Source of the DNA: Octopus sinensis
Lineage: Eukaryota
Length of the DNA: 64,000 nt
Assembly: GCF_006345805.1 (NCBI RefSeq)
Contig: NC_043017.1
Span: forward strand, 9,052,001 to 9,116,000
Direction of reading: 5' to 3'
This document shows, in pieces, positions 16,786 through 57,025 of the stretch. The stretch's first letter is position 1. Each line of letters begins with the position of its first letter. The notes beneath the pieces are model-generated. The model was not told the origin of the DNA, did no database searches, and saw only the letters and a program-made list of their open reading frames with translations. The translations under genes were made by a program, and so were the position numbers.

Positions 16786-17500
16786 CTTAACTGATTTGTC
16801 TTGGTATAAAAGATGGGCTACAGCAAATATTCTGCTCAATACCACAGATTTGCTTGTCAGTTGCTTGACTGTAACCAGTTGACCATGTCTCTTGGTGGTT
16901 GACAATATGTGCATCTCTGATCATGAGCAGAAGTAGTGGAGGAGCATCATAGCCACTTGTTGAGAGGGATTCTTTAAGGTTTGAATAATTCACCTCTGAA
17001 AACATGGGTGTTTTGTTCAACATCTTTAAACAATCCTTATTCAGGGATCTTTTGAGTAGGATGGGCTACTCGGCGTGAAGAAAATTCTAACTGGGCCCCA
17101 TCTACTAGGTCATGTGCTGTTTATCTTGATGTGAGATGACCATATCATGTACACTTGGTTGTGATGCATGTGCCTGGTGTACCCTTATTAGCCAGGTAGT
17201 CATGATGGGTATAATGGGCTTCGTATATTTGTAAAGTTAATCCAAACATGAAAGCACAAAAGAAACACAACAACGCAAGGACGTGGAACAAATATAGTAT
17301 TATTGGACGCTCAGGAAAGAAGGAGTGTTTAACGTTTCGAGCGGAGCTCTTCGTCGGAAACATAGAAGGAAAGATCCAGAGAAGGGAAAACAGAGGGAAA
17401 AAAATCGCCAACGGTACACACGCGGTCACATTTTTGACCCCAGTGTCACTTTGATGGCATGCACTGCTCTCTCACTCAATAATAATAATAATAATAACAA
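16786..17500 (+). mobile_element. Retroposon 3' end with (AAT)n tail, interrupted by a Penelope-like fragment
   Basis: Non-microsatellite segment ending ctctcactc(aat)n; clade not determined. Confidence 0.4.
17231..17430 (-). mobile_element. Penelope-like fragment with minimal hammerhead variant at 17326-17362, nested in another retroposon
   Basis: Same core as the 12798 copy, with stem I TGTTT/AAACA; it interrupts the (AAT)n-tailed element at 16786-17500. Confidence 0.7.
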
Positions 17501-42819: not shown

Positions 42820-42890
42820 CTGTGTGCAATGCGGAGCAAGGAAATGAAACAGAAGAAAACATTGGCATTCAGTAAATTTAGGATTTGAAT

Positions 42891-44740
42891 AATGTAGGAT
42901 AAATTAGCAACAACATTTAATAATGTAGCAATGGCATTTGACAATGTAGGATAAATTAGCAACAGCATTTAATAATGTAGCAATGGCATTTGACAATGTA
43001 GGATAAATTAGCAACAACATTTAATAATGTAGCATTGGCATTTGACAATGTAGGATAAATTAGCAACAACATTTAATAATGTAGCAATGGCATTTGACAA
43101 TGTAGGATAAATTAGCAACAACATTTAATAATGTAGCAATGGCATTTGACAATGTAGGATAAATTAGCAACAACATTTAATAATGTAGCATTGGCATTTG
43201 ACAATGTAGGATAAATTAGCAACAACATTTAATATGTAGCAATGGCATTTGACAATGTAGGATAAATTAGCAACAACATTAATAATGTAGCATTGGCATT
43301 TGACAATGTAGGATAAATTAGCAACAACATTTAATAATGTAGCATGGCATTTGACAATGTAGGATAAATTAGCAACAACATTTAATAATGTAGCATTGGC
43401 ATTTGACAATGTAGGATAAATTAGCAACAACATTTAATAATGTAGCAATGGCATTTGACAATGTAGGATAAATTAGCAACAACATTTAATAATGTAGCAA
43501 TGGCATTTGACAATGTAGGATAAATTAGCAACAACATTTAATAATGTAGCATTGGCATTTGACAATGTAGGATAAATTAGCAACAACATTTAATAATGTA
43601 GCATTGGCATTTGACAATGTAGGATAAATTAGCAACAACATTTAATAATGTAGCATTGGCATTTGACAATGTAGGATAAATTAGCAACAACATTTAATAA
43701 TGTAGCATTGGCATTTGACAATGTAGGATAAATTAGCAACAACATTTAATAATGTAGCAATGGCATTTGACAATGTAGGATAAATTAGCAACAACATTTA
43801 ATAATGTAGCATTGGCATTTGACAATGTAGGATAAATTAGCAACAACATTTAATAATGTAGCAATGGCATTTGACAATGTAGGATAAATTAGCAACAGCA
43901 TTTAATAATGTAGCAATGGCATTTGACAATGTAGGATAAATTAGCAACAGCATTTAATAATGTAGCAATGGCATTTGACAATGTAGGATAAATTAGCAAC
44001 AACATTTAATAATGTAGCATTGGCATTTGACAATGTAGGATAAATTAGCAACAACATTTAATAATGTAGCAATGGCATTTGACAATGTAGGATAAATTAG
44101 CAACAGCATTTAATAATGTAGCAATGGCATTTGACAATGTAGGATAAATTAGCAACAACATTTAATAATGTAGCAATGGCATTTGACAATGTAGGATAAA
44201 TTAGCAACAGCATTTAATAATGTAGCAATGGCATTTGACAATGTAGGATAAATTAGCAACAACATTTAATAATGTAGCAATGGCATTTGACAATGTAGGA
44301 TAAATTAGCAACAGCATTTAATAATGTAGCAATGGCATTTGACAATGTAGGATAAATTAGCAACAACATTTAATAATGTAGCATTGGCATTTGACAATGT
44401 AGGATAAATTAGCAACAACATTTAATAATGTAGCAATGGCATTTGACAATGTAGGATAATTAGCAACAGCATTTAATAATGTAGCAATGGCATTTGACAA
44501 TGTAGGATAAATTAGCAACAACATTTAATAATGTAGCAATGGCATTTGACAATGTAGGATAATTAGCAACAACATTTAATATGTAGCAATGGCATTTGAC
44601 AATGTAGGATAAATTAGCAACAACATTTAATAATGTAGCAATGGCATTTGACAATGTAGGATAAATTAGCAACAACATTTAATAATGTAGCAATGGCATT
44701 TGACAATGTAGGATAAATTAGCAACAGCATTTAATAATGC
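42891..44740. repeat. 52-bp tandem satellite, ~35-36 near-identical copies
   Basis: Unit aatgtaggataaattagcaacaRcatttaataatgtagcaWtggcatttgac; two polymorphic sites plus occasional 1-nt deletions. Confidence 0.97.
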
Positions 44741-45455
44741 AGAATGTAGTGACACATTCTAAAGTATATATATATATATACTCCACTCAGTTGAGGGGAT
44801 CGTGTGTTGTGAGCTACTTGGGGACTTTACCAGTGATGGTGTCACATAAAAAAAAAGTACTGTACAGGTCAAAGAATAGAGGCCAAATTAATATGGACCA
44901 CATCTTCCCAGAGGTAACAATGAGATTTTGTAGGACCAACACCCCTACTTCGAAAAAAAAAGGGGCTAAGTTACAGAAGCATCAATGAGTATTCAAAACC
45001 AACAAGACTTGGGAGTGGAAGGCCTCCCCCCCCCAGGGTAACATATACAGGAAGAATGAAAACCCAACATCCTGCATTACACACCAGGCTGTTACCTGGG
45101 ATACACAAGGGAGGTGGAAGGGGCTGAAAGTAGCAAGAGGAGGGTCAATGGGGCAGAAATGAAAAAGTAGGGACCCAACAGGAGAGAAGTAAAAAAGACA
45201 GCTCAGAGTTGAACAGAGTGGGAAAAAGAAAGAGTTGTTGATGGTCTACACCCCATAGGGAAAGAAGGGCTTCAGTAAGGACATTGCAACCGTCATTTTC
45301 ATATATATATAGGAGGTTATGAGAGGTAATGGTGTCAGTAAGACCACAAAGTGTCAGGTAATGCCGAGTAAGTGCTATGGATAGACCAGAGTTAAGCTCC
45401 AGGTTCGGTGATTATGCGAACAAGGAGTCCAACGTAGGTCATATATCAGTGTGTG

Positions 45456-45864
45456 TATACATAAAAATTTTTTTCAGAATGAAATGAAAAAACCAAGGCT
45501 GTGTAGATTTTAGAACATTTATAAATAGGTCTTACAGTTGTTTCCAGGATATTTATTATATCCCTTCAACAGAGACGGTGTGAAAAAGTGGTTGAGCAAT
45601 AGTTAATTTAGATAAGATACGAAAGAGAGAGTGAAGTGGAATGCAATATCCCTGCATATCTCATGTCTATTTTCATTCCTCCACTTCACTCTCTATTTCG
45701 TATCTTATCTAAATTAACTATTGCTTAGCCATTTTCTCACACCGTCTCCAATGAAGGGATATAATAAATATCCTGGAAACAGCTGTAGGACCTATTTATA
45801 AATGTTCTAAAATCTTCACAACCTTGGTTTTTTATCTCATTCTTAAAAAAATTGTGTATGTATA
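45456..45864. mobile_element. Fold-back element (arms ~45456-45640 and 45680-45864) with degenerate hammerheads at 45529-45576 (-) and 45744-45791 (+)
   Basis: Inverted arms of ~185 bp; inferred consensus GTCT-CTGATGA-AGGGATAT-aataa-ATATCCTG-GAAA-CAGCTG-TA-AGAC. Confidence 0.75.
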
Positions 45865-46103
45865 TATATATATATATATATATATAGATATGTATATATG
45901 TATGTATATATATATACATGCTAGCATGGAAAACGGATGCTAAACGATGATGATGATGAGGATGATATTTATATTAATAAAAGGAATTCCAACCTTGTCT
46001 GATTTTTACGTTTTATTTACAATCTTATAATGATATATAAGATAATATAATATAATATAATAGAATAAAATAAAATAGTAGAATGTTAAATGTTCATTCT
46101 GAT

Positions 46104-46148
46104 TGAACTAGTACTTTCATGCATTAAATTATGCAATCTTCAGGTTCA
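46104..46148 (-). ncRNA. Minimal type I hammerhead ribozyme motif, core intact, sense to the GRASP pre-mRNA
   Basis: Minus strand TGAAC-CTGAAGA-T-TGCAT-aattta-ATGCA-T-GAAA-GTAC-TA-GTTCA. Confidence 0.75.
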
Positions 46149-46223
46149 TGAAGATTGTCCGGTATCAGATCAATCCCAAAATCTAATCAGTTCGTGCCAG
46201 TCATGAGGCCAAACATCACTGAA

Positions 46224-46268
46224 TGAACCTGACGATTGCAGAATTTAATGCATGAAAGTACTAGTTCA
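46224..46268 (+). ncRNA. Minimal type I hammerhead ribozyme motif, core intact
   Basis: TGAAC-CTGACGA-T-TGCA-gaatttaa-TGCA-T-GAAA-GTAC-TA-GTTCA: stem I TGAAC/GTTCA, CUGANGA, stem II, GAAA, palindromic AGTACT helix III, UH site at 46262-46263. Confidence 0.75.
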
Positions 46269-46437
46269 ATCAGAATGAACATTTAACATTCTACTATTTT
46301 ATTTTATTTTATTCTATTCTATTATATTATATTATCTTATATTATATCATTATAAGATTGTAAATAAAACGTGAAAATCAGACAAGGTTGGAATTCCTTT
46401 TATTAATATATTCTTCTATACACAATCACACACACCC

Positions 46438-46485
<48 letters not shown>

Positions 46486-46628
46486 GGTGTATATCAAAAC
46501 CCTGTTTAAAGACATGATCCAGCTTCCTTGAATTTAGGTCCCTAACTTTGTTGATTCTAATCCAGAAAGAAAAACACCAATTTAAAAATCAAGAACAAAA
46601 GGGTTTGAGAAGATGTTCAGATAGTTAC

Positions 46629-46759
46629 CTTCCTTCGCCACCCCACTGGTTATTTGGGGTGATGGTCACCTCACGACAGCTGTCTGAATCAGTATTATAG
46701 ACATACAACTTGAGAGGTTTGCCTTCGTAAGACTCTATTAATGTGAACAGATCTTCAGA
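46629..46759 (-). CDS. GORASP2: GRASP exon, [43 protein letters not shown]
   Basis: ttgcag| ... |gtaact; 131 nt. Confidence 0.96.
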
Positions 46760-46896: not shown

Positions 46897-47070
46897 GTTA
46901 GTTAGTTAGTTAATTTTTTGGCTCAAAAAGCAAAAAAGCAAGGCCATGTAGGGGGACATGAAGTTATGTACAGGGAGGGTGTTCATGTAAAGAGTTCAGG
47001 CCACTTGTGGTCAAGGGAGACTTTGAACTGAGCGGTTGTCGGTCGTCGGCATCTTCACCATCTCGTCCCT
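46897..47070 (-). mobile_element. Short 5'-truncated retroposon with (TAAC)n tail
   Basis: gttagttagttagtta at the left end; flanked on both sides by atgtgtgtggtggtgg (46875 and 47071). Confidence 0.5.
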
Positions 47071-47855
47071 ATGTGTGTGGTGGTGGCTGGGAAGTGTGTG
47101 GTGGTGGCTGGGAGTGTGTGGTGGTGGCTGGGAAGTGTGTGGTGGTGGCTGGGAAGTGTGTGGTGGTGGCTGGGATGTGTGTGGTGGTGGCTGGGAAGTG
47201 TGTGGTGGTGGCTGGGAAGTGTGTGGTGGTGGCTGGGAAGTGTGTGGTGGTGGCTGGGAAGTGTGTGGTGGTGGTGGCTGGGAAGTGTGTGGTGGTGGCT
47301 GGGAAGTGTGTGGTGGTGGCTGGGATGTGTGTGGTGGTGGCTGGGAAGTGTGTGGTGGTGGCTGGGATGTGTGTGGTGATGGCTGGGAAGTGTGTGGTGG
47401 TGGCTGGGATGTGTGTGGTGGTGGCTGGGATGTGCGTGGTGGTGGCTGGGAAGTGTGTGGTGGTGGCTGGGATGTGTGTGGTGGTGGCTGGGAAGTGTGG
47501 TGGTGGCTGGGAAGTGTGGTGGTGGCTGGGAAGTGTGGTGGTGGCTTGGAAGTGTGTGGTGGTGGCTGGGAAGTGTGTGGTGGTGGCTGGGATGTGTGTG
47601 GTGGTGGCTGGGAAGTGTGTGGTGGTGGCTGGGATGTGTGTGGTGGTGGCTGGGAAGTGTGTGGTGGTGGCTGGGATGTGTGTGGTGGTGGCTGGGATGT
47701 GTGTGGTGGTGGCTGGGAAGTGTGTGGTGGTGGCTGGGATGTGTGTGGTGGTGGCTGGGATGTGTGTGGTGGTGGCTGGGAAGTGTGTGGTGGTGGCTGG
47801 GAAGTGTGTGGTGGAGGCTGGGATGTGTGTGGTGGTAGCTGGGATATGTGTGGTT
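47071..47855. repeat. 21-bp G-rich minisatellite, ~37 copies
   Basis: Unit gtgtgtggtggtggctggga(a/t); it generates the spurious 290-358 aa ORFs. Confidence 0.97.
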
Positions 47856-48399: not shown

Positions 48400-48735
48400 T
48401 AAAAGTCCTCTCAACAATTAGCCAGAGATGATTTTTAAAATGAGAATATCTGAAATAAACTCGACTGCTCTCACAAATGAGAATACTTAAAATGAACCCG
48501 ACTGCTATCAAAAATGAAGTAAAAAACAAGGTAAGATAATCCAGAATCCTTGTCTGGTACCAGATTGGTCCCAAAATCTAATCAGTTTGTGCCAGTCATG
48601 AGGCCAAACATCCCTGAAAGTTTCATTCGAATCCATTCAGCAGTTCTTGAGATATTTTTGTCCACGGACAAACAAACAAACAAGCAAACACACCTAAAAA
48701 CAATACCTCCACCTTTGCTAAGGCAGAGGTAATAA
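48400..48735 (-). mobile_element. Helentron-associated (DINE-1/HINE-like) non-autonomous element
   Basis: Minus strand starts ttattacctctgcctt..aaggtggaggt (inverted repeat), then (GTTT)n. A homologous copy in the opposite orientation lies at ~26020-26230. Confidence 0.6.
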
Positions 48736-48937
48736 CTTCAAATTTTGGCACAAGGCCAGCAATTTCGAGGAAGGGGATAAATTAACTACATTGATCCCAA
48801 TATGCAACTGGTACTTGTCGACCCTGAAAGGATGAAAGGCAAAATCGAGCTCAGTGGAATTTGAACTTGGAACACTAAGACAAACAAAATGCTGCTAAAC
48901 AGTTTATCCAGTGTGTTAGTGATTCTGAGGGCTTGCC

Positions 48938-51015: not shown

Positions 51016-51446
51016 TGTATTTTGGGATAATCATTTGTTTTTTGTTTTTCTTTGCCAAATAAACACGCACACTATATATTTTGTTCTACACTTGTTTATT
51101 TCTGTTCTTATTCTAACTCATGTCCACTGTCTGGAAATCTTTCACCACACATCTGTGACCTCTTCAGTGACACTTTCCATCATCGTGTCTGCTCTTGCGC
51201 CACTTAGTCTATTCAGAATGTAAAGTGATGGGACAAGAACAGAATGGAGCAAGTGGAGCAAGAACACACATGAAAACGAAAAGTGTCGCTGAAGAGGTCA
51301 CAGATATGCGATGAAAGATTTCTAGACAATGGACATGAGTTAAAACAATAAAATAAAAACAGCAATAAATGAGAGAAGGTAAAATATATATTGCTTGAGT
51401 TTATTTGGCAAAAAAAGAGAAAAGAAAATGACCATTCCAAAATACA
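51016..51446. mobile_element. Older fold-back element with hammerhead-like motifs at 51128-51172 (-) and 51284-51328 (+)
   Basis: Diverged inverted arms; both keep TGTC-n-CTGAAGA-G-GTCACA..TGYGRT-GAAA-GATTTCYA-GACA. Confidence 0.65.
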
Positions 51447-56832: not shown

Positions 56833-57025
56833 AAAGAAAACAAAACAAAAAGTGGCAGGTTTACCATGTATTTCTATATTTTGGGGGTGCAGACCCCTTC
56901 TTCAGGACATTTGGAAAAAATTGACTTTTTTGAACAACCATTTTTACCAAATGTCCTGAAGAAGGGGTCTGCACCCCAAAATATAGAAATACAAGATGAA
57001 ACTGCATCTTTGTTCTGTTTTCTTT
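56833..57025. mobile_element. Short fold-back element with hammerhead-like motifs at ~56872-56909 (-) and 56952-56988 (+)
   Basis: Arms read TGTC-CTGAAGA-A-GGGGT-ctgc-ACCCC-AAAA-TATA-GAAA; GAAA is replaced by AAAA in both arms. Confidence 0.65.

Follow-up and report, generated by a model that had tools for sequence, protein, structure and literature searches.

A head-to-head pair of truncated Penelope-like terminal repeats with hammerhead motifs in a GRASP55/65 intron of Octopus sinensis

Results

Two inverted arms lie close to a splice donor of GRASP55/65

The DNA analysed here, hereafter the window, is a stretch of 64,000 nucleotides from Octopus sinensis (NC_043017.1, positions 9,052,001 to 9,116,000). 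Its minus strand carries exons of GRASP55/65, identified by PF04495 and by PDB matches, among them the exon for the second PDZ-like domain (46629-46759, minus strand), upstream of an intron spanning 42820-46628. An earlier note, made from the sequence alone, had placed in this GRASP intron two near-identical inverted arms around a 73-nt spacer, and both the placement and the arms proved correct. The left arm (45970-46149, minus strand) is 180 nt long, lacks a tail and is of a variant termed here 'T-loop', while the right arm (46223-46410, plus strand) measures 188 nt and is of the 'G-loop' variant, with C at N7; each is a 5'-truncated 3' end (pLTR) of a Penelope-like family. The arms are 92% identical. 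They differ at N7, at the first base of loop II and at one distal substitution, as well as by mismatches and 8 nt of length in the AT-rich middle; the N7 and stem II/loop differences had been noted before, the mismatches of the AT-rich middle and the length difference had not.

The right arm alone continues into an AC-rich tail of 28 nt (46411-46438, plus strand), so that the limits first given to the element, 45970..46410, hold for the arms and fall short of the right boundary. The tail ends 190 nt from the splice donor and is followed by a (TA)n microsatellite (46439-46485), the usual target of the arm family. On the other side, where (TA)n would be expected, the left arm adjoins a fragment of another dispersed repeat (45916-45969). 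With the right end in (TA)n and the left end against this fragment, no target-site duplication is discernible. Tandem arrays with 52-bp and 21-bp units also occur in the GRASP introns (44000-44750 and 47013-47850).

The spacer (46150-46222, 73 nt) comes from the interior of an unrelated dispersed repeat, the fragment being 70 nt long (46154-46223). Of 2911 first-look candidates for this repeat, the best match among the 40 scored (69/70) lies on the same contig, 2.1 Mb away. A copy within the window, at 48550-48618, was rejected as the source, being only 90% identical. The donor repeat itself is about 400 bp long, carries (AAAC)n and has a small GC-rich hairpin close to one of its ends (window 48406-48875; L032-L042), and is in our estimation reminiscent of Helitron-related non-autonomous elements.

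The two hammerheads are minimal and face outward

When both strands of the complete window were scanned with a strict descriptor, exactly two hammerheads emerged, with cores at 46229 (plus strand) and 46143 (minus strand), the same two that had previously been described as complete and minimal. They occupy the inner ends of the arms and face outward. The minus-strand motif (46104-46148) is sense to the GRASP pre-mRNA and has its predicted cut at 46109/46108, the position named earlier; the plus-strand motif (46224-46268) is antisense to GRASP, with a predicted cut after 46263. Both have the components of a minimal type I hammerhead (core CUGANGA/GAAA/UH, helices I and II, palindromic helix III), and the 5-bp stem I, CUGA(A/C)GA, GAAA and palindromic helix III are all present as initially described. 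The cleavage site is CUA in both motifs, and stem II comprises 4-5 bp. In place of the G10.1-C11.1 pair of the minimal type I definition, the first stem II pair is U10.1-U11.1, a non-canonical pairing that had been pointed out at this locus and that turns out to be family-wide (79/80 arms); U10.1-U11.1 is described as a natural variant and the best-tolerated mismatch (PMC3088659).

Searching Rfam, a check proposed in the earlier note, returned 38 matches at E<=10, none of them to a hammerhead family; they were chance hits, such as microRNA models on TA repeats. On its own the ribozyme folds weakly (z -0.2 to -2.0).

For the full hairpin the computed folding energy is -258.5 kcal/mol (z -38), and forcing the ribozyme fold out of it would cost about 56 kcal/mol. 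The proposed geometry, in which the antisense arm is made first on the GRASP pre-mRNA and masks the ribozyme, thus agrees with the folding model. The ribozyme is predicted to be masked by the hairpin because the arms stand head to head, and the same is expected of any insertion of this kind. When a quarter, a half or all of the antisense-arm adenosines were replaced, masking of about 55, 48 and 43 kcal/mol was left, in a crude model where G-U stands in for I-U and overstates I-U stability and the barrier. Seventeen of the 45 nt of the ribozyme are A, five of them at invariant core positions, and editing would be expected to damage these five core adenosines. Hyper-editing in animals affects long hairpins and Penelope repeats (PMC5625713), and by analogy editing of this hairpin is plausible; if transcribed with GRASP, it would be an ordinary ADAR substrate, removed with the intron.

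The arms belong to a young Penelope-like family

The family is one of young Penelope-like retrotransposons, and what the window contains is its terminal repeat (pLTR). A search of the genome with the arm yielded 49 matches at 87-100% identity from 40 scored of 1235 candidates, and exact matches to a 34-nt ribozyme pattern and to a 22-nt piece of the distal arm numbered 427 and 819, respectively, against 0 for reversed-pattern controls. Coding sequence for a reverse transcriptase (RT) and a GIY-YIG nuclease lies upstream of the longer copies. No RT was found in the 64-kb window; it is in long copies elsewhere in the genome that the arm is seen as the pLTR of an RT/GIY-YIG element, which bears out the link to Penelope-like elements drawn in the earlier note.

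Eight long loci, selected for open frames of 770-777 aa with RT and GIY-YIG, all show the same layout (8/8): the ORF, about 500 nt, then the arm. Upstream of the ORF a second arm is direct in four of the eight, represented by an inverted truncated copy in one and absent from three. In a 775-aa frame, RVT_1 matched with E 2.4e-6 and 27.9 bits, just below the cut-off of 29.6, and GIY-YIG with 24.8 bits, above its cut-off of 22.6. The natural ORFs have a CxxC between the halves of the GIY-YIG motif and two later His, forming a CCHH motif; such a motif, with two cysteines inside GIY-YIG, marks EN+ Penelope-like elements (PMC8557442). Ahead of GIY-YIG, the RT-EN linker contains C-X4-C-X2-C, which fits the Neptune-type CX2-5CxxC, and a linker motif of this kind is given for Neptune and Nematis (PMC8557442). 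A Neptune-type placement would rest on the linker motif and on (TA)n targeting rather than on a tree, and Nematis also has the linker motif.

The 28-nt tail of the long copies lies between the 5' pLTR and ORF1. In six of them (L124-L129), ORF1 opens directly behind the tail, is about 430 aa long and shares with the RT frame an overlap that spans seven consecutive T. Relative to ORF1, RT is read in the -1 frame in 3/6 copies; homopolymer indels set the remaining copies apart. This arrangement makes a programmed frameshift between the two frames possible.

The element protein has 664 relatives at E<=1e-30, of which the named ones come mostly from bivalves or bivalve-associated samples. Four relatives (P0006, P0009, P0069, P0088) are filed under the names of bacterial symbionts of bivalves; these entries are probably host contamination, a hazard among such entries that PMC8557442 warns of. 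Among the papers listed in a survey of literature on hammerheads, Penelope and octopus, none dealt with the arm family, judging by title or abstract start; the family may already be named elsewhere.

Two other candidate classes were discarded. A MITE or fold-back DNA transposon does not fit, since the arms are pLTRs of a retroelement, vary in length and are also found singly and in tandem, and the two ends differ. A non-LTR retrozyme, defined by head-to-tail tandem repeats of the ribozyme unit (10.64898/2026.07.22.740005), does not fit a locus that is head-to-head.

The fold-back layout is routine in the family

When the first 100 ribozyme sites of the listing were examined for neighbours no more than 5 kb apart, 14 pairs were outward, three tandem and none inward, and in 8/14 of the outward pairs the gap was 42-102 nt; one inward pair was found elsewhere in the genome (L012). 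Extrapolated to 427 sites, 8 per 100 suggests some 30 short hairpins genome-wide with both patterns exact. Around the first 100 distal-pattern sites, 94 distinct arm ends were recovered, and of the 54 that had a visible 5' end and enough flank, 28 had inverted family sequence directly upstream. In a further set of 34 distinct outward pairs, drawn from 109 overlapping loci picked by similarity, the tail was on one side in 29, on both in three and on neither in two. At least 90 of 106 family ends adjoin TA repeats.

The outward-facing, one-tailed and TA-targeted layout is therefore the routine insertion pattern of the arm family. Its components have been described before: a unit with an inverted 5'-truncated copy, a one-sided tail of 30-40 bp and a (TA)n target (PMC8557442), dual minimal hammerheads on opposite strands 100-700 bp apart, reported as early as 2014 (PMC4209133), and head-to-head as the commonest inverted layout, with unrelated DNA sometimes captured between pLTRs (PMC3846280).

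Visible 5' ends concentrate upstream of the ribozyme: in a sample selected on the distal end, 26/57 lie between -42 and -35 relative to stem I. This hotspot, 35-42 nt upstream of stem I, coincides with an initiator-like motif (L162-L256), and the standard fold-back junction is a palindrome centred on it. Three loci of a biased sample had suggested that truncation at the 5' end reflects ribozyme cutting in vivo, but this idea was dropped, as 0/57 ends lie at +38 to +42.

The window copy departs from its relatives in several respects. It is the sole pair of the 34 with a short foreign spacer (four longer gaps left out); one more pair has a 430-nt unrelated gap between its arms (L134). Both window arms start within a base or few of stem I, as do only 2/57 other ends (-6 to +2). 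The loop-base variant agrees within 18/20 pairs, and the window copy is among the two that are discordant. At L148, a standard fold-back, the arms differ at two subfamily-diagnostic sites, which hints that they came from two template RNAs.

Core positions decay like their neighbours

Conservation was assessed over 80 whole-ribozyme arms by counting departures from the commonest letter of each column, with five inherited subfamily columns dropped, including core U4. Departures were as rare in the core (5/790) as in the rest of the ribozyme (19/2523; p=1.0), and against all other columns (68/6106) p was 0.27, in what is a weak test at about 1% divergence; the comparison covers family copies and not selection at the window locus alone. 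Conservation of the core beyond neighbouring positions, the feature of a domesticated ribozyme, is thus not seen across family copies, and the earlier note had itself counted such an outcome against its proposal. At the neutral decay rate of the family, both cores would be intact about 80% of the time; two intact cores are explained by the family being young.

A U4C core is carried by 30/80 arms and by 7/8 long-ORF loci, and U4C lowers activity in vitro (PMC3088659). The U4C subfamily is linked to a loop-II change (L124-L130, L162-L256).

A second fold-back, from another high-copy family (3301 first-look candidates), lies about 110 nt to the left of the element (window 45466-45860), with arms 91% identical and a decayed hammerhead in each (cores at 45572, minus strand, and 45748, plus strand). 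It has the same layout as the element, further decayed. Other copies of its family have CUGAUGA or CCGAUGA cores, and a Penelope origin is likely, with RT-like sequence beside only 1/19 loci. A third repeat, in two minus-strand copies at 17357 and 12828, has a hammerhead-like motif with a CCGACGA (U4C) core, and short fold-backs at 51016-51446 and 56833-57025 contain no hammerhead under the strict descriptor.

Discussion

We consider it very likely (probability about 0.9) that the locus is a head-to-head pair of 5'-truncated pLTRs of a young Penelope-like family, bridged by a piece of a foreign repeat, likely the product of one insertion and likely inert.

How such a pair might arise can be sketched from work on Anolis, in which the protein nicks both strands of AT-rich DNA in vitro, reverse transcription starts at two internal RNA sites bounding the tail, and uncleaved RNA is used, the ribozyme cleaving only with the protein of the element (PMC11167929). 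By extension, the octopus protein would nick both strands of AT-rich DNA, and cDNA synthesis would start internally on the element RNA, at each end of the tail, which immediately follows the 5' pLTR. The reverse transcriptase would copy the uncleaved ribozyme and run off the 5' end of the RNA, and the two short run-off cDNAs would be joined head to head. The transcript would start within the pLTR; going by the positions of 5' ends alone, the initiator-like motif of the hotspot may be the transcription start, and an internal promoter with an initiator has been described for Penelope (PMC2377424). In the window copy, both cDNAs would have stopped at the 5' edge of the ribozyme and been bridged by a captured 70-nt piece. 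Self-priming has been favoured as the origin of inverted pLTRs (PMC3846280), and the present data do not choose between self-priming and the joining of two cDNAs.

The peculiarities of the window copy would also be accommodated by two independent insertions, or by deletion or gene conversion that shortened a longer pair, with the remnant of another repeat in between. Two nearby events or gene conversion are possible because the arms differ at a loop base that is polymorphic in the family; they differ in AT-run length as well, the spacer is foreign and the left flank is not (TA)n. We nevertheless regard a composite origin as improbable: only one side bears a tail, the pattern of single insertion units (29/34), the flanks of the donor repeat are not found outside the arms, the discordant pair at L148 has a standard junction, and the capture of unrelated DNA between pLTRs is on record (PMC3846280).

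Functional co-option is a more demanding proposal. The earlier note saw in the locus a self-silenced and possibly editing-releasable intronic self-cleavage switch. In the fullest form of this idea, ADAR editing, or family RNA or protein acting in trans, would open the hairpin and the sense hammerhead would cut the GRASP pre-mRNA 520 nt past the donor. In its favour are two canonical cores, an antisense arm that the polymerase reaches first, a long hairpin with few imperfections, a distance of 190 nt to the splice donor, and the known hyper-editing of hairpins and repeats of these kinds (PMC5625713). Against this, two intact cores are what neutral decay would leave with a likelihood of about 0.8, and the same geometry recurs at many loci. 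Each transcript would have one sense ribozyme, whereas the class needs a dimer (PMC4209133; PMC6765202), with single motifs giving no cleavage and dimers being weak (PMC4209133), and the Anolis motif cleaved only together with the protein of its element (PMC11167929). Even with every antisense-arm A substituted, 43 kcal/mol remains in a model whose G-U stand-in overstates I-U stability, and editing would presumably strike the five core adenosines too. With a routine layout, a core that is not specially conserved and at least 43 kcal/mol of masking remaining in this crude model, the switch is not upheld, and we judge such co-option highly improbable, both as a self-silenced switch and in the editing- or trans-released form set out above. 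Were it true, the output of a Golgi-stacking protein would be tied to editing or to transposon activity, and dozens of such hairpins could form a class of editing-gated intronic ribozymes.

Finally, a long-read fold-back chimera is exceedingly improbable as a source of the palindrome because the arms are not mirror copies, each matching a different common family variant, the ends differ by the one-sided tail, the spacer is non-palindromic and the unique flanks are identical in the contigs of three sequencing runs (about 7 substitutions in 353 nt in a fourth), even though among the contigs listed from the four runs no piece crosses the junctions of the element and inverted repeats trouble assemblies (PMC8557442).

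For the preferred reading, a truncated Penelope-like insertion, the window locus alone matters little, being a tidy instance of a published insertion pattern, and the family is the more useful object. Short copies share a well-defined 5' end ahead of the ribozyme, and no ends fall at the cut site, a pattern that fits internal-start reverse transcription of uncleaved RNA. The prevalence of U4C (30/80 arms, 7/8 long-ORF loci) is consistent with the view that spread needs no strong cleavage, and 2/20 discordant pairs hint at two template molecules as a possible source of inverted arms, which bears on how inverted pLTRs form. Taken together, the family data offer hints for Penelope biology and do not amount to a new system.

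In amniotes, domesticated intronic hammerheads occur at low copy number and are conserved between species, whereas the window element is one of hundreds of young repeat copies. What the two have in common is a hammerhead within an intron of a protein-coding gene (C10orf118, PMC3088659). The likeness to the minimal hammerheads of metazoan Penelope-like elements is closer, covering type I, a 5-bp helix I and a palindromic helix III; here, however, the usual G-C is replaced by U10.1-U11.1, helix II is short and there is a large U4C subfamily (PMC4209133). With Poseidon of Anolis, a member of a different clade, the family shares an AC-rich tail that directly follows the pLTR, 3' ends of two kinds (tailed and untailed), AT-rich targets and no evidence of ends falling where the ribozyme cuts, but in Poseidon the ORF begins inside the ribozyme, whereas here an ORF1 of about 430 aa follows the tail (PMC11167929). 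The window pair differs from insertion units of the EN+ Neptune/Nematis type in that both copies are reduced to the ribozyme and the 3' end, and in that a foreign 70-nt piece forms the junction instead of the usual short palindrome. In other respects the resemblance to these units is extensive, comprising a hammerhead pLTR with an adjacent inverted 5'-truncated copy, a tail of about 30 nt at one end, a (TA)n target and, in the family, an RT followed by a Cys linker and a GIY-YIG domain with the CCHH motif (PMC8557442; PMC3846280).
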